NCBI GenBank assembly: GCA_026683435.1
Contig: GCA_026683435.1_4866.1
DNA from: a phage
Length of the DNA stretch: 64,000 nt
Strand: one strand, 5' to 3'
Below, piece by piece: positions 4,649 through 45,611 of this stretch (the first letter of the stretch is position 1; the number at the start of each line of letters is the position of its first letter). The translations under genes were made by a program, and so were the position numbers. A model generated the notes under the pieces. The model made no database searches. It had not been told where the DNA came from and saw only the letters and a list, made by a program, of their open reading frames with translations.

Positions 4649-5548
4649 TTAAGGCAGAACGAGTTCAAGTACCGCAATAGAACGTATTGTATCGGTTTCG
4701 TATCTACCGTTCGACGGCGACTCTGGGTAAGGTGGACGGCTGTACCACTGATTGTAAATGTCAGACATAGTCGCAAAGAGTGCAGATTGCGGGGCAGTAG
4801 TCGAATCGGTTGGACCGACCGGAAGGTCGTCAAAGCGCGGCAACTGCCCACTGTAGTTGTACAGGCGCGCGAAAGTGTTAAACCACTCACCGTCGAGATA
4901 CAGCTCGGTCTTACCGCTTCTAACGTTAGTCGTCCAGAATCTGTAGTCGAACAAATACGGCAAACGCACCACGTATTCGTAACCGTTCTTCGCCACCGTG
5001 CGGCGTTGGTTACGTGCAGTGGCCCAGCTCGGTACAAATCCATTGCCATCCTGGCCGTACATCAGCCCCTGGTTATAAATGAACTGCGGGCTAGCGTATA
5101 TTATCGCGTTATCGGACATAAACAGAATACGGTTTTTGTAAATGAACTTATGCCAGGCACCAACGGCGGAACTGAACATATTCACCACGAGGCTGTTCAG
5201 TTCCGTGTTAGTGAATAACTCTGTTGGCGTTACTGTTCCAAAGTATCCAGCGTGCCAGTCGCCGTATAACAGCTTCTGGGGGCCAGGCCCGGTGTCTAAA
5301 AAGAACCCTTGGGCGGTAGGGGTGTTGAAGACACGCTCACCGTCTTTAACCGCAGCTATCCAATAACGGTAAGTGGTGTTGTTTTCCACAGCGTTGTCTT
5401 CGTACGATGTAGCGTCACCCGGAAGGGTTGCCAGAGGCGTTCCCGGTGCATTAACATCAATGGTGGCGTTGCCCGGCGTCTTGCGATAGATTTCGATGCT
5501 ATCGAGCGCCTGTGGCTTCCGTTGTGCAAAGTTTAATGTAATAGGCAT
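4649..5548 (-). CDS. array paralog B'-type (beta-sandwich-like N-terminus + shared core domain)
   Basis: Track ORF 4649..5584 starts at TTG; first ATG at 5548 (MPITLNF...) 2 nt after the upstream stop. Motifs IEIYRK...TYRYWIAAVKD, GPGPQKLL...GYFGTV, C-terminal ELVLP shared with 7982..8905. Confidence 0.6.
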   Translation of the reverse strand: MPITLNFAQRKPQALDSIEIYRKTPGNATIDVNAPGTPLATLPGDATSYEDNAVENNTTYRYWIAAVKDGERVFNTPTAQGFFLDTGPGPQKLLYGDWHAGYFGTVTPTELFTNTELNSLVVNMFSSAVGAWHKFIYKNRILFMSDNAIIYASPQFIYNQGLMYGQDGNGFVPSWATARNQRRTVAKNGYEYVVRLPYLFDYRFWTTNVRSGKTELYLDGEWFNTFARLYNYSGQLPRFDDLPVGPTDSTTAPQSALFATMSDIYNQWYSRPPYPESPSNGRYETDTIRSIAVLELVLP

Positions 5549-5550
5549 GA

Positions 5551-6537
5551 TTAATCCTCGATAAGCTCGATTACTGGAATCCAAACACCGCCCGCGGTCG
5601 CACCAGCGACATGTTGTATACGCTGGAGGTTATCCACGGTATCAGTGGAACCCGCCGCCGTTCCGCGCGTCAGCCCCAACTTACGGTCTGGGTCAAACTC
5701 CTGACAATGCGCCCCGCGGCCACTCACCGCCGATCCACTTCCGAATATGCTGGTGTTCGACCACTTTATCAGGGACATCACTTTTTTCTTTTCTGGGAAC
5801 CAGCTACTTATCCCATAGATGAGTCGGTTGTATTCGCTATCGGCAGTATACGGTGACGCGTCATGGAGTTTACCGTCCCACTGTGCATCGAGTGTCATGA
5901 CCGGGCTTTCACTGTCGAGTGTTAAACCGCGCAGCAGGCGCATCCGATAGCGGTCACCCAACCACGTAAACTCCCCAGCCTGGTCAACGTCAGGTAAATC
6001 ACCATGACCGCCTTCCGGACCAGGTCCCGCCACACCGTACAGCAAACCCGCGTTATAAATCGCATCACGGCTATACAGCGTGTTGCCGTTCACACGAAGA
6101 CCACTAAACAGATACAGAATTTTACCGTCTAGCTGGAACTTCATCAAGCCCGGCTTAACAGTTGGGTCGTATCCAGAAAGGGCCACAAACCCTGGCGGAT
6201 AATCAGCCGCGCTAGGCAATTCACCGTACGCCACATACCCGTAATACGCAAAGCGGTCATCACCGTACTGTGGAGCCACGATGCCGATACCGCGACGGTT
6301 CTGAATTAGAATTGATTTCTGCGGACTGAACAGTGTCCGACTTCCCACTGTCACGGTGGTCATGTAGTAATACGTTGTCCCCAGTATCGCTGTTCGGTCA
6401 GTATACTCAGTTTCCCCGTTAGTGAACGTTGCCAGGGGTTCAGGTAATGCCGTACGCACCAGAGGTTTGGTGTCGCGGTACAGCTTCACGGTCGAAGCCC
6501 CAGGGTTATTGTTCGTCCAACGAATTGTAAAAGCCAT
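5551..6537 (-). CDS. array paralog B-type
   Basis: 328 aa; MAFTIRWTNNNPG...VKLYRD...TYYYMTTVT; core motifs AIYNAGLLYGVAGPGPEGGHG, RMRLLRG; paralog of 8915..9913. Confidence 0.6.
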   Translation of the reverse strand: MAFTIRWTNNNPGASTVKLYRDTKPLVRTALPEPLATFTNGETEYTDRTAILGTTYYYMTTVTVGSRTLFSPQKSILIQNRRGIGIVAPQYGDDRFAYYGYVAYGELPSAADYPPGFVALSGYDPTVKPGLMKFQLDGKILYLFSGLRVNGNTLYSRDAIYNAGLLYGVAGPGPEGGHGDLPDVDQAGEFTWLGDRYRMRLLRGLTLDSESPVMTLDAQWDGKLHDASPYTADSEYNRLIYGISSWFPEKKKVMSLIKWSNTSIFGSGSAVSGRGAHCQEFDPDRKLGLTRGTAAGSTDTVDNLQRIQHVAGATAGGVWIPVIELIED

Positions 6538-7981: not shown

Positions 7982-8905
7982 TTACGGTAAGACTAATTCA
8001 AAAGCAAAGAACATCGTGGCCGAGTTCCCGACACCTGAGGTGTTACTAATCCCCATAGGCGCATAACCGTACGCATAAGCGAAAATGTTGTTGCTCCATA
8101 AAGGAGCTAATGCAGCAGCACCTGTTTCGTTAGGCTGGTAAGTTGAACCTTGCGCCGGTATTGAATCGATGGCACCAAGACCAATAGGCGGGAACTGTGA
8201 ACCGACAGGATACAAACGGCCCATTGTGTTTCGCCATTCACCGTTGTTGTAATCCTGTCCTGAGAGTGCCGCGTCGTACGGGACTGCGTAAGGTAACCGG
8301 ATACGGTACGTACGACCATCCTTCGTGACCTTACAATCTTGTTTGGTCGCCGTGGCCCCCAGCGGAACAATACTTCCGTCATCATCGGTCCCGTACATCA
8401 TGCCGTACTGATACGCCATTTGTACCGAGTTGCTTTTCGAATGCATCGTCGCTGGGAAGAAGACAATTCGCCCACGGAAAATAAACTTGTGCCATTCCTG
8501 AGGGTCGTAAGTAAACATGTTTCCCTGCTGCGCGGTTAACATGAGTTTTAACTCGGCAGTATTAAAGAACTCGGTATTAGATACCGTACCGAAATAGCCT
8601 GACGCCCAATCGCCACGCAAAATAGTTTGTGGCCCCGGTCCAGTGTCCGGATAGAACCCTTGCGTAATCGGATTGCCGATAAGTCGTTCATTATCTTTCA
8701 CAGCAGCTACCCAGTAACGATAAGTTGTATTCTTCGTCAGGGTATCGATATTATCTACGAACTCTACCGCGCTACCGGATAAGGTGGCGTGGGGTGTACC
8801 TGGGTTGTAAACGTCGATTGTTGCGTTCCATCCTTCCTTGCGGTAGATTTCAATCGCGGTAAGACCTTTGCTGGCTTGGGACGGCCAGCTTAACCGTATA
8901 GTCAT
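7982..8905 (-). CDS. array paralog B'-type
   Basis: 307 aa; IEIYRKEGWNATIDVYNPGTP...TYRYWVAAVKD...GPGPQTILRGDWASGYFGTV; C-terminal FELVLP. Confidence 0.6.
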   Translation of the reverse strand: MTIRLSWPSQASKGLTAIEIYRKEGWNATIDVYNPGTPHATLSGSAVEFVDNIDTLTKNTTYRYWVAAVKDNERLIGNPITQGFYPDTGPGPQTILRGDWASGYFGTVSNTEFFNTAELKLMLTAQQGNMFTYDPQEWHKFIFRGRIVFFPATMHSKSNSVQMAYQYGMMYGTDDDGSIVPLGATATKQDCKVTKDGRTYRIRLPYAVPYDAALSGQDYNNGEWRNTMGRLYPVGSQFPPIGLGAIDSIPAQGSTYQPNETGAAALAPLWSNNIFAYAYGYAPMGISNTSGVGNSATMFFAFELVLP

Positions 8906-8914
8906 GACTGCCCC

Positions 8915-9913
8915 TTACTCGACCAGTTCAAAGATAGGGTAGTAGCGCCCTTTCGTGGTGGGTGATAAATAGTTTATACGCTGAATCGTGGATACGGGTG
9001 TTCCACCGGCATTGTTAAAAATACCACGATGGAGCACACGGTCTTCCGCGGTATCGTGTTCCATACAGAGAACACCACCGCCGAAATACTGTGCCAAGGT
9101 TCCCAAAGTACCCTGTCCCAGATAAGTATAACCGATTGTTGCCCAGTTAGCCCAACGCTGTTTCTTCGGCACCTCGTTAACCATCGTGTAAAGTAAATCG
9201 TTATACTCACACGGGTTGGTTAGAGAAGCGATTTCATCATGGGTTTTCCCATTATAGTCAGCTACGAAAGGATACGCAGGAGGCTCGCTAGACGTCGTCA
9301 GGCCGCGAGGAAGACGCATAATGTACGTATCCCCTTTGTGGACTATCTTAGCGTCTTGTGGAGTGGCCGGTAGCGTTCCATGGCCGTTCTCTGGGCCAGC
9401 ATCGCCCGTACCATAGACTAAACCAGCTTGATAGAGGGAAGCCCAGTCCACAGGCGTATTCGGGAACTGCGACGTGTTAGATAGCATGTAATAGATCTTC
9501 CCGTTTCGGGTAAATTTATACAACGCCACACGATCGGTTAGTAGGTTAGGGAACATCGCCAAAAATGCAGGTGGCATTTGCGACGGAAGCCACTGTTCGT
9601 CGTAAGGAACCGCACCCATAAACCCTAAACGGTCGTCACCGTTTAGAATAGTCATTGGGCCTATCCCGCGTTTTACCTCAACAGTATATTTCTGGCTAGA
9701 CGATGCCACTGTTTTACCGTTGGCGGTTACCGTCAGAAGGTAATAATAGGTTGCGCCTGGTGTGGCGGTGGTATCACGCCATTCTGTCTCGCCATTTGAG
9801 AGCGTTGCAATCGGTTCAGGCAAAGCGCCTGGTGTGATATCTTTAACATCACGGTAGATTTTTACTACCGTAGGGATTACGTTTGGATTTTTCCAACGCA
9901 AAGTAAAAGACAT
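8915..9913 (-). CDS. array paralog B-type
   Basis: 332 aa; MSFTLRWKNPN...VKIYRD...TYYYLLTVT; LYQAGLVYGTGDAGPENGHG; C-terminal PIFELVE. Confidence 0.6.
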   Translation of the reverse strand: MSFTLRWKNPNVIPTVVKIYRDVKDITPGALPEPIATLSNGETEWRDTTATPGATYYYLLTVTANGKTVASSSQKYTVEVKRGIGPMTILNGDDRLGFMGAVPYDEQWLPSQMPPAFLAMFPNLLTDRVALYKFTRNGKIYYMLSNTSQFPNTPVDWASLYQAGLVYGTGDAGPENGHGTLPATPQDAKIVHKGDTYIMRLPRGLTTSSEPPAYPFVADYNGKTHDEIASLTNPCEYNDLLYTMVNEVPKKQRWANWATIGYTYLGQGTLGTLAQYFGGGVLCMEHDTAEDRVLHRGIFNNAGGTPVSTIQRINYLSPTTKGRYYPIFELVE

Positions 9914-11386: not shown

Positions 11387-12214
11387 TTAGCTGTTATAGT
11401 GGTAGTACGCCACGCCTTTCACGCCTTCCTCATCGATACCCGTTTGGACAACCACGCGGTCGTACGATTTGTTAGCGAACTGAGCGGTGGATGTCGGCAC
11501 ATCCTGAACGGTGTTACTGTTCAGTGGCCCCGCGTAGTTCGGAATACCCAGGTCATCCAACACCTTACGCAAACCAGCCCACTGCGGTAGGCCAGAAGCA
11601 TCTACTGTCAGTAGGTTTTTATACGCGGTAAAGTCAATACCGTACGTCAACAAATCAATACACTTCTTACCGAGAGACGGTGAAATAGGCTCTTGAATCG
11701 CATTCAAGACATCCGATTTCACCGAAGTGTCTAGTACCGGTAAACCACGGTTATAACGCAACGTCGCAGAACCGATATAAGCCGGAGATGTCGATAGCGC
11801 TACGATGTTCTGTGTATTGGTGTAATTTGGGGTATTGGGACCCGCCAGTGGGAGGTTATAGATATCGATTGCAGAGAAGTTTACTCCGTAAGTATCCAAG
11901 AGCACCGAAAAGGCTGAGTGGAGGTTGGGAGCGTCAAACGTGACGAACTGCGCCTGGACAGAAGGACCCCACGGCAATAACCGCGCTAAGTTCACACGGT
12001 CGTAGTAAACGGTGATTGCGTCTCGAAATCCAGAACCCTGAATACCGCGCAAGCGTGCCGACGTATTGCGGTTGTTGGAAGCTGCATTAACGGGAACCTG
12101 TGTCACTTTCTCCACGTAGCAGTTTGCCGGCGACGCTTTAATAGGTAGGTTTGGGTTATCCCGGTTAATGAGGTCAAAGACCAACTCGTTTGACGGCTTA
12201 GCATAGTTGATCAT
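11387..12214 (-). CDS. N-module paralog, 275 aa, C-terminal YYHYNS (C-type end motif)
   Basis: Track start 12217 is TTG; ATG at 12214, 4 nt after upstream stop. MINYAKPSNELVFDLINRDNP...NNRNTSARLRGIQGSGFRDAITVYYDRVNLARLL. Confidence 0.6.
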   Translation of the reverse strand: MINYAKPSNELVFDLINRDNPNLPIKASPANCYVEKVTQVPVNAASNNRNTSARLRGIQGSGFRDAITVYYDRVNLARLLPWGPSVQAQFVTFDAPNLHSAFSVLLDTYGVNFSAIDIYNLPLAGPNTPNYTNTQNIVALSTSPAYIGSATLRYNRGLPVLDTSVKSDVLNAIQEPISPSLGKKCIDLLTYGIDFTAYKNLLTVDASGLPQWAGLRKVLDDLGIPNYAGPLNSNTVQDVPTSTAQFANKSYDRVVVQTGIDEEGVKGVAYYHYNS

Positions 12215-12217
12215 CAA

Positions 12218-13105
12218 TTATACCTCGCTTGGATCGTCCAGATCGTTGAACTGGAGATACAACGTTCCGACGATGGTGGTACAGGTAACAGGCAGTTTCA
12301 ACACCAGCGCATACTTGTACTTCGCGTTTGTCGGCATTGCAACAGGGTCATTCAGACCAACGCTGATAACCTCCGCGCCCGCCAAACCGTAGGAAGCGGA
12401 AGTGGTCGCTACCCATGCAGTACCCGTGATATCTTTCAGCAGGTTAACCATATCCGTCAACGGCTGTCCAGACAGAATACCCGGCTTGTATGCCAGCAGA
12501 GCATCTCGGTACTTAGTGAAGTTGTACGGGTAGGAATAGACCTCTGCAATGACCGCAGTAACATTTTCGGAACCCATCTGACCGTTCGGGTATTTCAGAC
12601 CGGTCAGGACGTTAGTAGTGACCGCAGAGACTAACGACTCATCGCCTTTCACGACTTTAAATGTCGCCTGTCCAACCCAACCGATAGACTCTGGATGTGC
12701 AACAACACGCACAGTACCTTCGGTCTTATCACCGTTCCATTCGATATCTGCGTCCTGCAGGTCAGCTTCTTCCAGAACAAAACCGTAACGTTGGTTCAGT
12801 CCAGGAATGGCCGCATACAAGGTTTCGTTGGATGGGCCGATCGCCAACGTGTCACCAATCAACACTAACAAGTCTTCGACTTTCATGCGGTTGTAGAAGA
12901 CATTTTTCTTACCCGACCAGGTAGAGCCCGTTACCCCATCTGCCGTAATTTTAATTTGCGTGTTACGGTTAGTCAGCGTTTCCTTTTCCGTACCACGGAT
13001 GTCCTTTGGCGTGGACCAGATGATGTCAGTCATCTTAACAGCAAGCGAGTTCTGTGCGTTCACTGCTGCCAACAGGACGTCTTTAGAAGGTTGATAAATA
13101 GCCAT
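12218..13105 (-). CDS. N-module paralog C-type, 295 aa
   Basis: MAIYQPSKD...TNRNTQIKITADGVTGSTWSGKKNVFYNRMKVEDLL...RYGFVLEEADL; C-terminal LYLQFNDLDDPSEV. Confidence 0.6.
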   Translation of the reverse strand: MAIYQPSKDVLLAAVNAQNSLAVKMTDIIWSTPKDIRGTEKETLTNRNTQIKITADGVTGSTWSGKKNVFYNRMKVEDLLVLIGDTLAIGPSNETLYAAIPGLNQRYGFVLEEADLQDADIEWNGDKTEGTVRVVAHPESIGWVGQATFKVVKGDESLVSAVTTNVLTGLKYPNGQMGSENVTAVIAEVYSYPYNFTKYRDALLAYKPGILSGQPLTDMVNLLKDITGTAWVATTSASYGLAGAEVISVGLNDPVAMPTNAKYKYALVLKLPVTCTTIVGTLYLQFNDLDDPSEV

Positions 13106-13115
13106 TCGCTAATTC

Positions 13116-13955
13116 CTAGTTGTTGTAGTGCAACATACACTCGCCGATTACTTTCGGGTCGTTCTGAATGCCGGTAATCAGCAATACGTTATCGTACGCT
13201 TTATTGGCGGTCGCCAACTCACTCGTTTTGTAGCGGGTAATTGTGCAGTTCGTCGGATCAAACGACGGTACCCCACGTGCGACCAATGTGGCCATCAGAT
13301 TGGACGTGTAACCCAAATCAAAGTTACTTCCTACGTCCATTCGCCCGTTCTTAAACGAGGCCATAACCTGCACTTCATCGGTAAAGTCTTCCCCGTACGT
13401 CAAGAAGCCCATGTATTTCTTACCAGTGCTTGCTGCTGCAGGGTGGTTCAAAGCCAACAAGATGTCGTTTACCACGAGGTCTTCGAGGCTATTCTTACCC
13501 CGGATAGACATAAAGGTGATGCTGCCAGTGTATTGGATACAGCTAGCGTTAATACGCATCGTGTTGTTTACGTTCAGATAAACGTATTGTTCTGGGATAT
13601 CATCTGCAACCAGGTTTAATCCATAACGACCGTTCAGGTTCTGCGCAAACGCAGTACGTTTCGACTCCACGTTCAACCAACCGTAGGCATTCGGTGCAGT
13701 TACCTGAGGTGTCATGTTCTTAAATAAGTCGTTCAGCGACAAGCGCTTATAACGGAACGTTTGAGGACCGATATAACCACGACCTTGACGACCACGAATG
13801 ATAATCTCGGTGTTGGCACCGCTTGCTGTCGGTGTGATTGCTTTCGGCGTACCGATGATAGCATTGTCTAAACCCATCGGTAGAACAGCATCCGGGTTTT
13901 CGGCATTAATCGCATCGTACAGATATTGTCGCTGAGACAGACTATATAAAGCCAT
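13116..13955 (-). CDS. N-module paralog C-type, 279 aa
   Basis: Track start 13973 is TTG; ATG at 13955 with GAGGAGG 4 nt upstream (MALYSLSQRQ...). Module ...GRQGRGYIGPQTFRYKRLSLNDLF...RYGLNLVADDI; C-terminal MLHYNN. Confidence 0.65.
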   Translation of the reverse strand: MALYSLSQRQYLYDAINAENPDAVLPMGLDNAIIGTPKAITPTASGANTEIIIRGRQGRGYIGPQTFRYKRLSLNDLFKNMTPQVTAPNAYGWLNVESKRTAFAQNLNGRYGLNLVADDIPEQYVYLNVNNTMRINASCIQYTGSITFMSIRGKNSLEDLVVNDILLALNHPAAASTGKKYMGFLTYGEDFTDEVQVMASFKNGRMDVGSNFDLGYTSNLMATLVARGVPSFDPTNCTITRYKTSELATANKAYDNVLLITGIQNDPKVIGECMLHYNN

Positions 13956-13970
13956 AATAGCCTCCTCGGC

Positions 13971-14012
13971 CAAAAAAGAAAGGAGTAGCCAGGAGGAGGA
14001 TTTCCTCCTCCC
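13971..14012 (-). terminator. hairpin terminator after gene 14025..14936
   Basis: ggaggagg-attt-cctcctcc; minus-strand T-run (plus caaaaaagaaagg). Confidence 0.6.
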
Positions 14013-14024
14013 AGCGAGGCCTAA

Positions 14025-14936
14025 TTAGGCATTAAAGTGCAGGTACATGATACCCTGGAAGTTGGTGCACAGAGTGTCATCCAGCTGCAGCAGCAGAACC
14101 TGGTTGTAAGCAGTGTTTGCACCTTCAACCGGTTTCTTAGGTTCGTCGCCTGAAGCAGTGCCATCGTCAGTAGTAGAACCAACGTACAACACGTTAGCGC
14201 CTTTCAGGTTATAATCCGCAGGCTTATCAGATGCAACCCACAGTTCCGGCACAACTTTATTCAGCTCAACCGGGAATGCAGAGTCGCCAGCGATAACACC
14301 TTTCGCCTGTACTTTCAGGAATGCTGCGATTGCTGTGCAGTCTACACCGTAAGAGTAGATGTAACCCTGACCCTTCGCAGCGCTTGGACCATCTGGGTAA
14401 ACCAGGCCGTCGAGCTTGGTTTGTGTTACCACCAGACTCAGACGTTCACCAACCTGAGGCTTAGCACCGATTTTAACCGGGATGCTGCCCAGATAAGCGT
14501 AGCAGTCTTCTTTGAAAGTAATGACGTGGTCAACCGGTGCTGGGTCCGGATCGTTCGGGTTAGTCAGCGGCGGGTTGGTATTTTCCGGAATAGCCGCCGG
14601 AACGATATCGTCTTCGGTCAGCTTCAATCCGTATTGGGTGTTCAGGGTCGTCAGCAGGTCGGTGGTGGTTTTCGGCAGTTTAACGTCGAGGTATGCGGTT
14701 ACATTACGGAACAGCGCACTGCCTTCCAGGCGATTATAAGTCACGTCCTGAGTACCGATGTACCCGGAGTTCTTTTTCGCAGTCAGGGTCATGCTGGTAT
14801 TGCGATCGGCACCTTCATCGCTAATAGGGGTCGGTGTGCCGAGCGTTATTTTAGAAAGTTCCAGTTCTGCGTCTGGGTTTTTCTCATTAATAAAATCCAG
14901 AACCAGCTTATCGGACGTTTTGTTTAAAGGTTTCAT
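14025..14936 (-). CDS. N-module paralog C-type, 303 aa
   Basis: MKPLNKTSDKLVLDFINEKNP...ADRNTSMTLTAKKNSGYIGTQDVTYNRLEGSALF...QYGLKLTEDDIV; C-terminal MYLHFNA. Confidence 0.6.
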   Translation of the reverse strand: MKPLNKTSDKLVLDFINEKNPDAELELSKITLGTPTPISDEGADRNTSMTLTAKKNSGYIGTQDVTYNRLEGSALFRNVTAYLDVKLPKTTTDLLTTLNTQYGLKLTEDDIVPAAIPENTNPPLTNPNDPDPAPVDHVITFKEDCYAYLGSIPVKIGAKPQVGERLSLVVTQTKLDGLVYPDGPSAAKGQGYIYSYGVDCTAIAAFLKVQAKGVIAGDSAFPVELNKVVPELWVASDKPADYNLKGANVLYVGSTTDDGTASGDEPKKPVEGANTAYNQVLLLQLDDTLCTNFQGIMYLHFNA

Positions 14937-14957
14937 TCTTACTTCCTTTACTCAGGA

Positions 14958-15803
14958 TTAATCAGGGTCGTTGTAATGCAAATACAAACGCCCGCCAAAA
15001 TTCAGACAGTACAACGACAGCTCCACAATCAGCACGTTGTCGACTGCTGGGTTGGTTGGTAATTCCGCTTTGTTACGCCCGTTATAGACGACGACGGCTT
15101 CACGAAGGTTAAAGTCGATAGGGTTGCGGTACGTTGTCCAGTTATCACCGGTGACCGTTTTGAGAATCTGTGCCAGACGTTCTGTGGTTATCGCAGCACC
15201 TAGTCGTTGAAATTCCTCCGCGAAATTATCAAAGCGCCAGGGATACGAATAAACTGCACCTTGACCGACCTTGATGTTAAAATACGGATACTCGTAAGGC
15301 ATCACTGTTAACGGTTCGAAGTTTGCAGGAAGCAACGCATCGCCTGGTAACAGCTGTACCTGTTGTTGCCCTATCCAACCTAAAGAAGTGGGCGTGGCAA
15401 TCAGATCCACACGCCATGTCTTCCTGTCGATTTCGGTATTCACCACATCTGCAGGTTTAAGGCTGAGACCGTAATACTGGTTAATTAACCCGACCACGTC
15501 ATGCATCTGGTAAACAGCATCGAGACGTGCAGGAACACGTAGAGGTTGAATCCCGTCCGGATCGGTAAACATGTCTGCGAAGTCAACACGATCGTAGTAC
15601 ACGGTAGTGGCACCGATAGCATTAGCCGTGGCCAATGCCTGAATGCGCACCATCGCGTTGTGACCGTTAGCTTTTGCCAGGTCTTCGTCAGACGTCGGAA
15701 TCGCAGGGACACCAAAAACAACATCTTCGACTTTTAAATCGAGATTGTTTTCGACGTTAACTTCCGCGATAATAATCTTTTCAGCTGTGGCTAAAAGTGG
15801 CAT
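14958..15803 (-). CDS. N-module paralog C-type, 281 aa
   Basis: ...TTVYYDRVDFADMF...YYGLSLKPADVV; C-terminal LYLHYNDPD. Confidence 0.6.
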   Translation of the reverse strand: MPLLATAEKIIIAEVNVENNLDLKVEDVVFGVPAIPTSDEDLAKANGHNAMVRIQALATANAIGATTVYYDRVDFADMFTDPDGIQPLRVPARLDAVYQMHDVVGLINQYYGLSLKPADVVNTEIDRKTWRVDLIATPTSLGWIGQQQVQLLPGDALLPANFEPLTVMPYEYPYFNIKVGQGAVYSYPWRFDNFAEEFQRLGAAITTERLAQILKTVTGDNWTTYRNPIDFNLREAVVVYNGRNKAELPTNPAVDNVLIVELSLYCLNFGGRLYLHYNDPD

Positions 15804-15813
15804 GTCAAAATCC

Positions 15814-16656
15814 TTATATCGGGAGATAATGAAGGATGAGATTACCGGCGTAGTTGCTGTCCGCAGCTAGCTTGATAATCGCCACACGCTGATAATCGGG
15901 GTTGTAACTATCGTTCGGTGTGACTGAAGTTATCCCCATAAATCGTGCACCTTGGAGTGCAATTTGTTCAGGTTGCGCATTCGCCCCCGTCACATATGCA
16001 AACTTTAATGGCACCACTTCATTCAACAACTCAACATCCGCTGCAGTGATTGCACGGTTGTAAACCCAATCGGTGGTGAACTGTTTTTGCAGTTCAGTCC
16101 AATCGTAACCATACGCCACATACTCAGCCTGCGGTTTACTAGCAACCACGAACGGCGCGATAATTGCGCTGAGGTCAACATCCGTCACCACATCCGCCAA
16201 GTTCGGGAAGAACTTCGCAAAGCGTAAACGGAAACCACCTTGCCAGGCCAAGCAACCGGGCTTAATAGTCACATCGATTAACCAGCTTTCTCCCAAATCT
16301 TTTACTGACTGGTCAACGATATCGTCGGCAACTAAAGACAAGCCGTATTTCGCATTCAGAAACGGCAACAACTCAGAGAGTTTATTTACCGGGTCGGCAA
16401 CGACTACCGGTATTACGTTCCTGAACAGAATTTCCATTTCGATACGGTCGTATTCGAGCGTAACGTTGCCTTTGTAGCCCTTGCCGTTCAACCCGTATAA
16501 GAGCACACGCGTATTCCGGTCAGCGCCAGGCGTTTGGACAGACTCAGGGAAGCCAGTTGCAACCTGCTCCCATGTGAGTGGATTGGCCGTTAATCCGTTC
16601 TGTCGGTTAATAGCATCTAACAACATCTCTTTCGAGGGCTTATCGTAAATAGACAC
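15814..16656 (-). CDS. N-module paralog C-type, 280 aa
   Basis: MSIYDKPSKEMLLDAINRQNG...ADRNTRVLLYGLNGKGYKGNVTLEYDRIEMEILF...KYGLSLVADDIV; C-terminal LILHYLPI. Confidence 0.6.
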   Translation of the reverse strand: MSIYDKPSKEMLLDAINRQNGLTANPLTWEQVATGFPESVQTPGADRNTRVLLYGLNGKGYKGNVTLEYDRIEMEILFRNVIPVVVADPVNKLSELLPFLNAKYGLSLVADDIVDQSVKDLGESWLIDVTIKPGCLAWQGGFRLRFAKFFPNLADVVTDVDLSAIIAPFVVASKPQAEYVAYGYDWTELQKQFTTDWVYNRAITAADVELLNEVVPLKFAYVTGANAQPEQIALQGARFMGITSVTPNDSYNPDYQRVAIIKLAADSNYAGNLILHYLPI

Positions 16657-16666
16657 CTATACCCTC

Positions 16667-17464
16667 CTAGTTGTTAAAGTGTAGGTTGAGGCTGCCCTGG
16701 AAGTTCGTACATTTATCGGTCAGTTGCACTGACACGACTTTCGCGAACGCCGTATTTGCTCCCGGCAAGTCTGCAGGTACGCCGTCGAATACGACAGTGG
16801 CACCACGCAGGTTATACGGGGATGGGGTATCTTCAGCTACCCAAATCTCAGGAACACATTTGTTGAGTTCGATTGCCAACGCCGTGTCATCTACCTCGAT
16901 ACCGACCGCTAAGAGGCTCAGGAAACGAGAGATGTGGCTACAATCGATGTCACGCGAATAGATATACGCCTGACCCAACTGGATGTCCTGGTGATCCGGG
17001 TACAGAAGACCGCTCAACTCTGTATTGGTTACTACTTCTGCCAGAGGTGTAGCAGGTTTCAGCTCGATGACCGCTTGACTTCGCCACTCGTGGGAAGTTT
17101 CAACAGCAACGACTGTGTGCGTCTGTCCATCAATGGGGTTATCTTCGATATCCTCAGGTAAGATAGACAGATTAAAACGCTCGTTAATCGCCGCGAGTAA
17201 GTCGTGCGTGGTTTGCACGTCCTCGTCTCCAAAGGCAACATCGCCTGTAAGGTAGTCCTCTAATGGGCGACGATGGTAGTCCACAATCACTTGCGTACCT
17301 TCATCACCGCGCATCTTCGAGGTAAGGACTACCTCCGAATCACGACCGTCTACTGACACAACCTCCGGCAGTCCGATATCAACATCGTCAAAGGTAAGCG
17401 GTGGGCTTATCTTATTCTCTTCGTTGATGAGTTTTAGCAGATTCTGTTTTGAAGTAAAAGACAT
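16667..17464 (-). CDS. N-module paralog C-type (first gene of array), 265 aa
   Basis: MSFTSKQNLLKLINEENK...; C-terminal SLNLHFNN; divergent N-module. Confidence 0.55.
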   Translation of the reverse strand: MSFTSKQNLLKLINEENKISPPLTFDDVDIGLPEVVSVDGRDSEVVLTSKMRGDEGTQVIVDYHRRPLEDYLTGDVAFGDEDVQTTHDLLAAINERFNLSILPEDIEDNPIDGQTHTVVAVETSHEWRSQAVIELKPATPLAEVVTNTELSGLLYPDHQDIQLGQAYIYSRDIDCSHISRFLSLLAVGIEVDDTALAIELNKCVPEIWVAEDTPSPYNLRGATVVFDGVPADLPGANTAFAKVVSVQLTDKCTNFQGSLNLHFNN

Positions 17465-40477: not shown

Positions 40478-40954
40478 TTAAAGCTCCTTTACCATATCCT
40501 GGTATTCAGTTCGAAAACCGAAACGTTCATAAAACGCAATAGCACGGTCATTATTACCGAGCACGTTAAGCTGCATCCATGCGCAGCCTTTTGATTTGCC
40601 GTAATTTTCTACGGCTTCAATTAACTCATGACCGACGCCTTGAGAGCGAACTGATTCATCTACAAAAAAGTTATATACCCAGAGGAAACGTTGTCCCTTT
40701 TTGGTGTAGCCGAAGGTGATGAAACCAACAGCCACACCACGGTCATCAACGGCGCAAGCGCACAGCGTACCTTCACCCCAAACCTCCTCCAGTTTTGAGA
40801 TTTGATTAAACCCTTCACGACCGTTTAAGTCGGCGAGTTTTATTTTCTGATCGTCGTATAACTTGTTGTGTAGTCCTAACAAGTCGGCGTAGTATTTCTT
40901 TCCATACGGGGAGTTGGGCTTGGTGACAAAAACGATTTTCATCACACCCTCCAA
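40478..40954 (-). CDS. GNAT-family N-acetyltransferase (tandem paralog 1)
   Basis: Motif A RSQGVGHELIEAVENYGKSKGCAWMQLNVLGNNDRAIAFYERFGF; N-terminus MKIVFVTKPNSPYGKKY parallels the neighbouring paralog. Confidence 0.75.
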   Translation of the reverse strand: MEGVMKIVFVTKPNSPYGKKYYADLLGLHNKLYDDQKIKLADLNGREGFNQISKLEEVWGEGTLCACAVDDRGVAVGFITFGYTKKGQRFLWVYNFFVDESVRSQGVGHELIEAVENYGKSKGCAWMQLNVLGNNDRAIAFYERFGFRTEYQDMVKEL

Positions 40955-41436
40955 TACATCTGGTAAGCACCTACCTTAAAGCCAGCTTTGTCGTAGAGCG
41001 ACTTCGCGGCAGCGTTACCGGCGTTCACGGACAGGTGAACAACTGTACACCCTTTTTCCGTTGCGGATTTCTTTACCGCATCCATCAACGCGGTGCCGTA
41101 ACCTTTACCACGTGCGCTGCTGCTAACGACCAGTGAGGATACCGACATCATCGTCACACCCTCTTCAGTCATCGTGCGGTATTGCGCAAAGCCATACAAG
41201 ACACCGTCGTCCACGACCGCCAGTAAACGACCCCGGAAGCGCTCGGCTAACGATTTAGCCGGCGTAAAACGGACATTAATACCCGTCTCTTTTCGATAGC
41301 TTTCTATTTCGCTTTTGTCCAGCTCGTTATAAAGCGCGAGGATATCTGTGGAATATTTCCTGCCGTTAGCCGTGTCTGGCCCCACTATGGTAATAATCTT
41401 CATCAGTTCACCTCGGCCAGCGATTGCTTCGTCCAC
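40942..41436 (-). CDS. GNAT-family N-acetyltransferase (tandem paralog 2)
   Basis: SARGKGYGTALMDAVKKSATEKGCTVVHLSVNAGNAAAKSLYDKAGF; N-terminus MKIITIVGPDTANGRKY. Confidence 0.75.
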   Translation of the reverse strand: MDEAIAGRGELMKIITIVGPDTANGRKYSTDILALYNELDKSEIESYRKETGINVRFTPAKSLAERFRGRLLAVVDDGVLYGFAQYRTMTEEGVTMMSVSSLVVSSSARGKGYGTALMDAVKKSATEKGCTVVHLSVNAGNAAAKSLYDKAGFKVGAYQMYWRV

Positions 41437-42849: not shown

Positions 42850-43449
42850 TCATAATAAGCACAAGCTCTCAAGCCACAGATGTCCTTCAAGCGCATGGTG
42901 GTAACAAGGAATACCACACTGCTTAGCGTATTTCACGCCCATGGCAGTACCGCCGGTCGGATTACCTTGTTTATCTAAAGGCGCAGAGTAATAAACTGCG
43001 TCTACAGGCGTTGCTAAATCATCGCCCATAATTATATTCAGATTACGGCCATGAAGCGCCCAGGCGAACTCCTGGAGCTTTTCTGGCGCGGGATGAAGCT
43101 TACCTACTATCTCACGATAGCGGTCATCCTGAGGGATTACACGGAACTCTACGTTGGGATTCTGTTTCTTGAGCCAGAGCTTTTTCTCATCGGGTAGGTA
43201 ACAAATGAACTCATCATCCCACGCCACTTTCTTGCCGGTATCTTGGTCTATTGTATTCGCCCACTGTCGGGCAAATCGGAATTGCAATTGGTCTGGACCA
43301 CACCAGCAGCCGCCAGAAGAAAAATGAATCGTGTAATCTTTGGCGTGCAGCGCATTAAACCCACGTAACAATCGCATGTACATTTCAGACATGGTATCTT
43401 CATCAGTCTTCCGAGAACCGATTACCGCAATTTTATAAATCTTTTTCAT
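42850..43449 (-). CDS. DprA/SLOG-like Rossmann-fold protein (tentative)
   Basis: IAVIGSRKT...FSSGGCWCGPDQ resembles the DprA/SLOG GSR...SGG.G.D pattern. Confidence 0.35.
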   Translation of the reverse strand: MKKIYKIAVIGSRKTDEDTMSEMYMRLLRGFNALHAKDYTIHFSSGGCWCGPDQLQFRFARQWANTIDQDTGKKVAWDDEFICYLPDEKKLWLKKQNPNVEFRVIPQDDRYREIVGKLHPAPEKLQEFAWALHGRNLNIIMGDDLATPVDAVYYSAPLDKQGNPTGGTAMGVKYAKQCGIPCYHHALEGHLWLESLCLL

Positions 43450-43484
43450 GGACTTACCTCCTATACGGAGTGGACGATTCGTAA

Positions 43485-43527
43485 GAAAAAAATAAATACC
43501 TACCCTCGCTAAACGGGCGAGGGTAGT
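43485..43527 (-). terminator. hairpin terminator after gene 43531..44148
   Basis: taccctcgc...gcgagggta preceded (plus) by aaaaaaataaat. Confidence 0.6.
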
Positions 43528-43530
43528 GTC

Positions 43531-44148
43531 TTAAACAAACTCACGATAACGAAAACCGTTAAGCTTCGTGATAGTCACTTCTTCTAACAGCTTACGCCCC
43601 CAGAAACCAGCCAAGTCGTATTCCAGACCAGGCAGCGTTGTCTTGGTTAAGTCTTGGCCGATATGGTACGGTAGCGTAATGCGTGTGCGCGATTCGTAAA
43701 CAAATGATTCACATTCATAGACGAGGACGTATCGATCAGTCGGGATGTCGTACTCTACGTGGCATTGCGCGGGGTTTTCCCACGCCTTACTTACAACGAT
43801 GCCGCGTTCTGCACACGCCGATTCAAAACTGACCATTGCAGGTTCAGACCATACGCGCAAATCGGCCGGTTTACCTTTCGACAAATCAAACCATGTGAGA
43901 TGTTCAGGCTTCAACGTGATTATATCATTTAAGCTCAATTTGCGGTAACGCACAACCACATAGTCATCTGGCTTACTCTTATTAGTCAGCAAAGCACTTA
44001 CACGACCGTCCGGTTCCGGTGGACCATAACTCTCCACTCGGATACGTTCTGTGGTCAGGGGCGTATAAACGGTTTCAGCATTAAAAGCATTGACTAAATC
44101 GAGCAAGGTTTGACTATGATGGTGGTTAAAGTCAATAACAAAAGACAT
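43531..44148 (-). CDS. stand-alone N-module-like protein (205 aa; weaker match)
   Basis: ...DYVVVRYRKLSLNDIITL resembles module block 1; own terminator. Confidence 0.5.
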   Translation of the reverse strand: MSFVIDFNHHHSQTLLDLVNAFNAETVYTPLTTERIRVESYGPPEPDGRVSALLTNKSKPDDYVVVRYRKLSLNDIITLKPEHLTWFDLSKGKPADLRVWSEPAMVSFESACAERGIVVSKAWENPAQCHVEYDIPTDRYVLVYECESFVYESRTRITLPYHIGQDLTKTTLPGLEYDLAGFWGRKLLEEVTITKLNGFRYREFV

Positions 44149-45125: not shown

Positions 45126-45611
45126 TTAGACGAAATGACCTTCTGCCATCGAAAGAAAAATGGGAACGCTTTCAGCGTAATGAGTTAAAAACTTTTCCTC
45201 CGGTGGCGTGTGTGACGAAATAACATTGTAGTTCGTCATACGAAAATACCGTTGGCCGTCAGCAGCAATATACCATCGGTCAATCTGGAAGCCTTGTTGG
45301 TGAAAGAATCCTAGCGCGGGAATGTTGGTCGGGTGAACACGACAGCTGATGTGTTTACGATCGGAGTTCTGCTGAAGATACTTAAGCATAAATCTGCCGA
45401 CACCGCCCCGCCGCGATTCTTCGGGCACTACCATATAGACCAAATGGCCAGGTTCCCATGCCATGATTCCCCGCACGATATCATCCTCAACAAACATCGT
45501 GAGTTTAATAGGCTCCTCGCGGATACTGTTTAAGTCGCGCACCCATTCAACCAGTTCAGGATAAACATTCGCGGGAATCTTATCCTCGACCACATTAATA
45601 ACAAGCATCAC
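45126..45611 (-). CDS. GNAT-family N-acetyltransferase
   Basis: Motif A VVPEESRRGGVGRFMLKYLQQ and ...ALGFFHQQGF. Confidence 0.65.
   Translation of the reverse strand: MMLVINVVEDKIPANVYPELVEWVRDLNSIREEPIKLTMFVEDDIVRGIMAWEPGHLVYMVVPEESRRGGVGRFMLKYLQQNSDRKHISCRVHPTNIPALGFFHQQGFQIDRWYIAADGQRYFRMTNYNVISSHTPPEEKFLTHYAESVPIFLSMAEGHFV

Follow-up and report, generated by a model that had tools for sequence, protein, structure and literature searches.

The gene located at positions 42850-43449 of the window, that is, of the whole stretch of 64,000 nucleotides of phage DNA analysed here, raises two questions: whether its product is a member of the DprA branch of the SLOG superfamily, and what role such a protein could play in a large phage. 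The original prediction, made from the letters of the sequence, described a DprA/SLOG-like Rossmann protein and linked it to families which bind single-stranded DNA (ssDNA) or process nucleotides. The DprA-like classification is itself already public, being found in PHROG 768, in the RefSeq annotation of phage SPN3US and in Iyer et al. 2021. The contributions of the present work are the following. At the level of individual residues, a sequence-based case is made for a DprA ssDNA-binding pocket that would be retained without the catalytic residue of LOG enzymes. The phage family is set clearly apart from the YAcAr-type SLOG protein called 'DprA' in the work on phage RAY. Finally, the domain is repeatedly fused to enzymes that erase ADP-ribose from DNA, which suggests a link to anti-DarT counter-defence.

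Gene structure and phage context

The region 42850..43449 of the minus strand is occupied by one complete open reading frame, as established from the ORF list and the sequence, and it begins with ATG, ends with TGA and has 199 codons for a protein of 199 aa. The coordinates of the original prediction are the exact bounds of this ORF, and the strand, which had not been given, is minus. Both motifs quoted at the time are present in the translation: IAVIGSRKT at residues 7-15 (window 43405-43431) and FSSGGCWCGPDQ at residues 43-54 (window 43288-43323). A strong Shine-Dalgarno sequence, AGGAGGT, can be read 6 nt 5' of the ATG (43456..43462, minus strand). A chance ORF is excluded because the motif residues are conserved across homologues. 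The protein is neutral overall (pI 7.0) and the SLOG domain occupies all of its 199 aa, as judged from secondary structure and from an hhalign alignment spanning residues 3-187.

A GC-rich hairpin followed by a T-run is located on the minus strand at 43500..43526, between the upstream ORF 43531-44148 and the DprA-like gene. It was retrieved by a consensus scan as a pattern match only, with a 10-bp stem containing 7 GC pairs. It resembles an intrinsic terminator of the preceding ORF, in a phage that has its own RNA polymerases, and its sequence suggests that it may mark the boundary of a transcription unit.

This region of the window is 96-99% identical to the Seoulvirus genomes of Salmonella phage SPN3US, Escherichia phage Lh1B, Proteus phage 7 and the SPFM phages, all of them SPN3US-like giant myoviruses with genomes of ~240 kb. 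SPN3US_0092 (gp92), also designated ACQ60_gp174, is the orthologous gene in SPN3US, with a protein identity of 98.5%, and 34 close relatives were found, almost all on ~240-kb contigs of jumbo phages. The orthologues are labelled 'hypothetical protein' or 'Phi92_gp047' in GenBank, the label 'DprA-like DNA recombination-mediator protein' being used for ACQ60_gp174 in RefSeq NC_027402 and in several newer records. No mention of gp92 was found in the SPN3US literature. The present result mainly backs this existing annotation, which is itself a prediction. A paralogue within the window, hinted at by the label 'PHI92_gene_1/2' in the SPFM records, was sought by tblastn and none was found.

Family assignment

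The protein matches PHROG 768 ('DprA-like DNA recombination-mediator protein') with an E-value of 1.8e-47, residues 4-189 being aligned with positions 3-170 of the 191 of the profile. No match to the protein itself was obtained in Pfam, NCBIfam or PADLOC even at E<=10, and sequence searches of the PDB, performed with the single sequence and with the A1 family profile, returned noise only. In consequence, the link to DprA is carried by PHROGs, by structure and by profile-profile methods. The Pfam model PF02481 (DNA_processg_A), which has a gathering score of 29.6 bits, is failed by the protein, and in the per-protein tables its relatives remain under this threshold with 12-23 bits. At E<=0.1, PF02481 is weakly matched by 44 of 70 standalone relatives (best E 3.3e-8); the same 70 proteins give nine Pfam matches to SLOG cluster4, five to YAcAr and none to LOG (PF03641). 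A precomputed PF02481 match was retrieved for 12 of 120 further relatives, and an exhaustive profile search collected 1,853 relatives at E<=1e-3.

Profile-profile comparison was performed with hhalign between a family alignment of 144 sequences and a DprA profile built from five sequences (H. pylori, S. pneumoniae, R. palustris, E. coli and ShosA) transcribed from alignment output. The match covers the whole domain over 137 columns, with a probability of 95.7% and an E-value of 8.9e-9 that, like the other hhalign E-values, refers to a single pairwise comparison and is not database-scale, and all the conserved motifs are in register. The narrow alignment A1 gave an E-value of 1.2e-3 only. When the DprA profile was restricted to enterobacteria, the match was weak (E 0.017 and 4.3e-5), and a more diverse DprA profile was needed.

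Structure prediction, which had been proposed from the outset as a check, produced a confident AlphaFold2 model from a 24-sequence alignment (pLDDT 93.9, pTM 0.90). The model displays an alternating beta/alpha Rossmann-like domain, that is, a SLOG fold resembling the solved DprA domains. Upon comparison of this model to the PDB with Foldseek, H. pylori DprA ranks at the top, and ThsA and LOG-type folds score below DprA. Among the viral structures of BFVD, TM values of 0.56-0.74 were obtained with the 'Phi92_gp047/DprA-like' group, versus 0.40-0.47 with the YAcAr/DUF2493 group. The protein belongs to the former group of phage SLOG proteins, which is separate from the latter. Membership of the YAcAr/DUF2493 and YpsA proteins (PF10686, PF06908; PDB 2NX2; RAY gp153), which have shorter domains without the HPxP...L-H-x-R-N layout, was considered and rejected: neither the best profile match nor the best structural match is to them, YAcAr is matched by 5 of the 70 relatives as against 44 for DprA, and the BFVD values are lower.

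The DprA/SLOG assignment of the original prediction is accordingly upheld by PHROG 768, by profile-profile homology and by the 44 relatives matching PF02481. Profile searches, on which its fate had been made to depend, gave a divided answer, since PHROGs, the structure and the profile-profile link to DprA speak for it while Pfam, NCBIfam and PADLOC provide no direct match. The evidence supports the placement, in the DprA clade of the SLOG superfamily, of a protein that fails the Pfam model, is devoid of SAM and winged-helix domains and carries additional family-specific residues. It is a single-domain member of a large subfamily found in phages and plasmids.

The identity to bacterial DprA/Smf (PF02481; 4LJK/4LJR of H. 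pylori, 3UQZ of S. pneumoniae, 3MAJ of R. palustris) is ~15-18%. Unlike these proteins, the phage protein consists of a single domain, without the N-terminal SAM or the C-terminal winged-helix (DML1) domain, and is encoded by a lytic phage and not within a competence regulon. The DprA domain, with 205 residues, exceeds it in length by ~15-20, and residues 64-80 of the phage protein form an insert specific to its clade. ShosA, the antitoxin of the ShosTA system (PDB 8ZVA/9VZO), possesses an N-terminal SAM domain and a PRTase toxin partner, ShosT, and binds RecA, whereas the phage gene has no PRTase partner and no PADLOC match (E<=10). Among the PHROG 768 or 'Phi92_gp047'-like proteins, of which it is a member, the jumbo-phage clade is distinguished by GGCW[CK]GPDQ in place of the typical GGAxGAD, by the 64-80 insert and by a conserved C-terminal WLESLRLL helix (residues 192-199).

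Conserved residues and the putative ssDNA-binding pocket

Two motifs, G-[STA]-R (Hp G50-R52) and [FLY]-x-x-R-[ND] (Hp F140-N144), are diagnostic of the DprA domain and bind ssDNA (Wang et al., PMC3950713). In the HpDprA-ssDNA complex, a thymine is placed in a pocket and held by Y108, R143, N144 and G164, with R52 as a gate; the substitutions R52E and R143E lower the affinity for ssDNA by ~315-fold and ~173-fold, respectively, and the domain on its own has a Kd for ssDNA of ~30 nM (PMC3950713). ShosA requires R139 and R234 both to bind ssDNA and to function, R261 being dispensable (PMC12961424).

In every alignment, the conserved blocks of the phage family pair with those of DprA as G-S-R with G-S/T-R, S-G-G-x-x-G-x-D with S-G-x-A-x-G-x-D, L-H-x-R-N with F-x-x-R-N and G-G-T with S-G-S. 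The first of them, G11-S12-R13 (43411..43419, minus strand), corresponds to DprA motif 1, G-[STA]-R, and its residues are kept in 142, 138 and 141 of the 144 relatives; in the hhalign register, R13 is equivalent to HpDprA R52 and to ShosA R139. The glycine-rich loop S45-G-G-C-W-C-G-P-D53 (43291..43317, minus strand) is aligned by hhalign with the S-G-x-A-x-G-x-D of DprA, and G46, G51 and D53 are each kept in 143 of 144 relatives. Within this N-terminal part, G11, S12, R13, T15, S45, G46, C48, G51, P52 and D53 show no variation among 24 homologues (43-99% identity), and G11/S12/R13, G46, G51 and D53 are at 96-100% in the 144 diverse relatives. C48 and W49 are peculiar to the clade of the jumbo phages, and SGGAxGAD is found at that spot in the wider family.

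DprA motif 2, [FLY]-x-x-R-[ND], is represented in the hhalign register by L132-H-G-R135-N136 (43042..43056, minus strand), with L132 in 131, R135 in all and N136 in 143 of the 144 relatives. L132 is equivalent to Hp F140, R135 and N136 to HpDprA R143 and N144, and R135 also to ShosA R234. The SLOG phosphate-binding loop, G166-G-T-A-M-G-V-K-Y-A175 (42925..42954, minus strand), is aligned with the S-G-S-x-x-T-A-R of DprA; G166, G167 and T168 are present in 144/144 relatives and G167 is equivalent to HpDprA G164. The aligned region stops near Hp residue 184. The gene is a real and conserved one whose product, by its predicted fold and its family profile, shares homology with the DprA domain and retains the ssDNA-binding motifs. 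By analogy, the protein would bind ssDNA via a pocket formed by R13, R135, N136 and G167.

Such binding would probably take place as a dimer, as all DprA domains are, to our knowledge, dimeric. In the DprA domain, ssDNA binding needs a homodimer formed via a C-terminal hydrophobic interface (Hp P183/L196/F205; PMC3950713). The hydrophobic WLESLRLL helix at the C-terminus of the phage protein is, from its sequence, a candidate for this interface.

The phosphate loop also bears on whether the protein could be a LOG-type phosphoribohydrolase, that is, an enzyme of nucleotide metabolism. LOG enzymes (PF03641) share the SLOG fold, the G-G-T phosphate loop and the h-x-R-[KN] helix motif with the phage protein. 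Their hallmark, P-G-G-x-G-T-x-x-E (cited in PMC3950713), reads T-G-G-T-A-M-G here, the position of the Glu (T168+3) being G171 in the phage protein and, among the 144 relatives, occupied 113 times by Ala and 30 times by Gly. As the catalytic Glu is missing, DprA-type motifs take the place of the LOG motif and PF03641 is matched by 0/70 relatives, this assignment was rejected and is very improbable. The term 'LOG-like' of the original prediction holds at the level of the superfamily only; of the two activities it had mentioned, the sequence evidence favours ssDNA binding of the DprA type over catalysis of the LOG type.

Several positions depart from DprA. The third basic DNA contact (Hp R170, ShosA R261) corresponds to K173 and is not conserved. 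A family-specific 'HPxP' element, H119-P-A-P122 (43084..43095, minus strand), is near-invariant (H119 in 141 and P120 in 134 of 144 relatives) and foreign to canonical DprA; it aligns near the DprA S-E-[FY] segment, in a part of the alignment that is uncertain. Position 133 is either His or Met, near-invariant as a pair, and is likewise a feature outside canonical DprA.

These residues give some ground for seeing in the protein an enzyme acting on nucleic-acid bases, for instance an ssDNA N-glycosidase or de-modifier, in which a base would be flipped into the SLOG pocket and a family-specific His would be catalytic. N-glycosidic bonds are cleaved by the SLOG enzymes of the LOG clade, DprA lacks the near-invariant H119 and H133, and HpDprA does put a base into the homologous pocket (PMC3950713). 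The family is also linked to base-repair enzymes through DarG Macro and NADAR domains and a weak AlkB-like match. An acidic residue is nevertheless absent at the LOG catalytic position, and H133 is replaced by Met in 51/144 relatives, which would be unlikely for a catalytic residue. We know of no precedent of catalysis in the DprA clade, and an enzyme of this kind is considered improbable.

Distribution and gene neighbourhoods

The family was found by tblastn in 648 phage records, mostly of large virulent myoviruses, which include T4-like phages, Vequintavirinae, Nankokuvirus, Ackermannviridae and jumbo phages. The neighbouring genes are three GNAT acetyltransferases, a phiKZ-type internal head protein and unknowns in the window, rnlB and head genes in CC31, genes for PhoH, a ClpP-like protease and a DNA methyltransferase in PVP-SE1 and Av-05, and a DNA helicase and a ligase in PAO1_Ab03. 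No conserved partner gene is present across the window, CC31, PVP-SE1, PAO1_Ab03 and Av-05, and no recombinase gene adjoins the DprA-like gene within the window. The metagenomic contexts of two further relatives (P0033 and P0349) are syntenic or uninformative. On conjugative or large plasmids, the family gene is located among genes of the leading-region type, encoding SSB, an SOS-response-associated peptidase (SRAP), a thermonuclease and RdgC.

In CC31 (L004:3006-4555) and in related Karamvirus and Klebsiella T4-like phages, the gene is placed directly after rnlB (RNA ligase 2) or overlaps it by 1 base. This adjacency may reflect a functional link to nucleic-acid repair.

Domain fusions

The family domain is fused to SF1 helicases (AAA_30/PIF1/UvrD_C) in P0063 and P0097, and fusions to DUF4326 and HTH domains are also present. 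In a protein encoded by the Erythrobacter aureus plasmid NZ_CP031358 (WP_115418205, L011:4821-6068), a macrodomain of the DarG type, with 5M3I (E 2.9e-32) as best PDB match and 5M31 at E 2.1e-27, comes after the family domain (E 6.4e-56). P0100 associates the family domain with NADAR and a DarG-like Macro domain, P0349 with NADAR alone, and P0170 carries a sub-threshold AlkB-like domain. The DarG macrodomains 5M3I/5M31 strip ADP-ribose from the thymidines of ssDNA (PMC5179494), and NADAR enzymes reverse the ADP-ribosylation of guanine in DNA (PMC11543638, PMC11125620).

Fusions of this type have been read in another manner. From the partners Macro, NADAR and DUF4326, most viral SLOG domains were predicted to operate in NAD+/ADPr pathways (Iyer et al. 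2022, PMC9503650), and the same partners occur in the present family. The main rival explanation is accordingly that the protein is a sensor, sponge or hydrolase of a soluble signal derived from NAD+ or ADP-ribose (e.g. cADPR isomers) and serves counter-defence without acting on DNA. The additional invariant polar residues H119, H133, D53 and N136 would suit the pocket of a small ligand. The fused macrodomain is, however, of the DarG type and NADAR reverses the ADP-ribosylation of DNA bases; since both partners act on ADP-ribosylated DNA, the fusions are at least equally compatible with an ssDNA-binding module. DNA is further indicated by the helicase fusions and by the SSB and RdgC neighbours. 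The DprA sequence signature, the lower scores of the ThsA and LOG-type folds and the absence of a PADLOC match also count against a soluble signal, which we hold to be a rather unlikely ligand.

A set of related giant proteins of 4,000-5,200 aa carries the family domain at the extreme C-terminus; it includes P0066, P0099, P0102, P0104, P0108, P0134, P0146, P0156 and P0180, of 4,100-5,200 aa. No Pfam domain was detected anywhere in the two that were scanned, P0066 and P0099. These giant carriers may represent 'polyvalent' proteins that uncultured phages or conjugative elements inject.

RAY gp153 and DarG-like macrodomains in phages

In the nucleus-forming Erwinia phage RAY, a GFP-tagged protein designated 'DprA gp153' was observed in the phage nucleus together with UvsX gp150 (Prichard et al. 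2023). This protein was considered as an orthologue and as direct evidence of localisation, and was rejected as being a YAcAr-type SLOG. RAY gp153 is a protein of 293 aa with a short C-terminal SLOG domain, its best Pfam match is YAcAr (E 1.3e-4), its similarity to the phage DprA-like protein extends over ~57 residues only, and it ranks 26th in the viral fold search with a TM of 0.45. Its N-terminal extension of 150 aa is not detectably NADAR-like. As gp153 is not an orthologue, its nuclear localisation can be transferred at the level of the superfamily only.

RAY gp152, encoded directly upstream of gp153 and labelled 'putative phosphatase', was identified as a DarG-like macrodomain (E 2.1e-20). 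The pair gp152-gp153 (L010:13154-14511) lies three genes from UvsX gp150 and constitutes a Macro-SLOG neighbourhood. In SPN3US, a DarG-like macrodomain is encoded at 174528-174836 of JN641803, ~86 kb from gp92 and outside the window, and is a probable homologue of AdfM. In the related phage Asesino, the orthologous macrodomain, AdfM, has a nuclear localisation, and the AdfM of PhiKZ clears DNA of the ADP-ribosylation introduced by DarT2 (PMC13309987).

Proposed function

Taken with its sequence signature, the protein is best described, with moderate confidence, as a minimal DprA-family protein that would bind ssDNA as an accessory factor in the recombination, replication or repair of phage DNA. 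Acting during infection, it could load or assist a phage UvsX/RecA-like recombinase and so replace UvsY, which is absent from such phages. The simplest reading is the proposal of Iyer et al. 2021, according to which the DprA/Smf of group 1 and 2 jumbo phages could substitute UvsY as an extra ssDNA-binding mediator (PMC7824862). Alternatively, it would dock onto ssDNA or shield it so that repair enzymes can act.

A role on ssDNA is favoured by the DNA-acting fusion partners (SF1 helicases, DarG-type macrodomains and NADAR) and by the plasmid neighbours SSB, SRAP and RdgC. On the other side, the Pfam DprA model is not matched by the protein, the third Arg contacting DNA (Hp R170) is not kept in the family, and the near-invariant H119 and H/M133, foreign to DprA, could point to a different ligand or to catalysis. 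The local neighbours (GNATs, internal head protein and unknowns) give recombination no support, and the pI is neutral.

The same fusions allow for a role other than that of a classical mediator, namely an ssDNA-docking module within a set of phage and plasmid tools for protecting or repairing ssDNA hit by DNA-modifying toxins of the host, the DarT ADP-ribosyltransferases in particular. The domain is, in some elements, joined to the erasers themselves, DarG-type Macro, NADAR and possibly AlkB. In the SPN3US-type phages it would act in trans with the separate DarG-like macrodomain (a probable AdfM homologue) or, alternatively, shield ssDNA inside the phage nucleus. We regard this specialised role as unlikely.

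If the accessory ssDNA-binding role, with assistance to a recombinase, is correct, the protein would fill the vacant slot of a UvsY-like mediator in nucleus-forming giant phages and would help to explain recombination and replication restart inside the phage protein shell. The fusions hint in addition that the widespread phage 'DprA-like' proteins, present in hundreds of genomes, may counter host toxins that ADP-ribosylate DNA.

Other features of the window

The three GNAT acetyltransferase genes (40478-40954, 40942-41436 and 45126-45611, minus strand) are located within 5 kb. Those at 40478-40954 and 40942-41436 overlap by 13 nt and are paralogues with 34% identity. Further away, seven paralogous ORFs (265-303 aa) are arranged in tandem over 11387-17464 (minus strand), with pairwise identities of 22-35%, and a second set of paralogues, 25-41% identical, is found at 4649-5584, 5551-6537, 7982-8905 and 8915-9913. 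In the near-identical phage Lh1B, the members of both sets are annotated as hypothetical or putative virion structural proteins.
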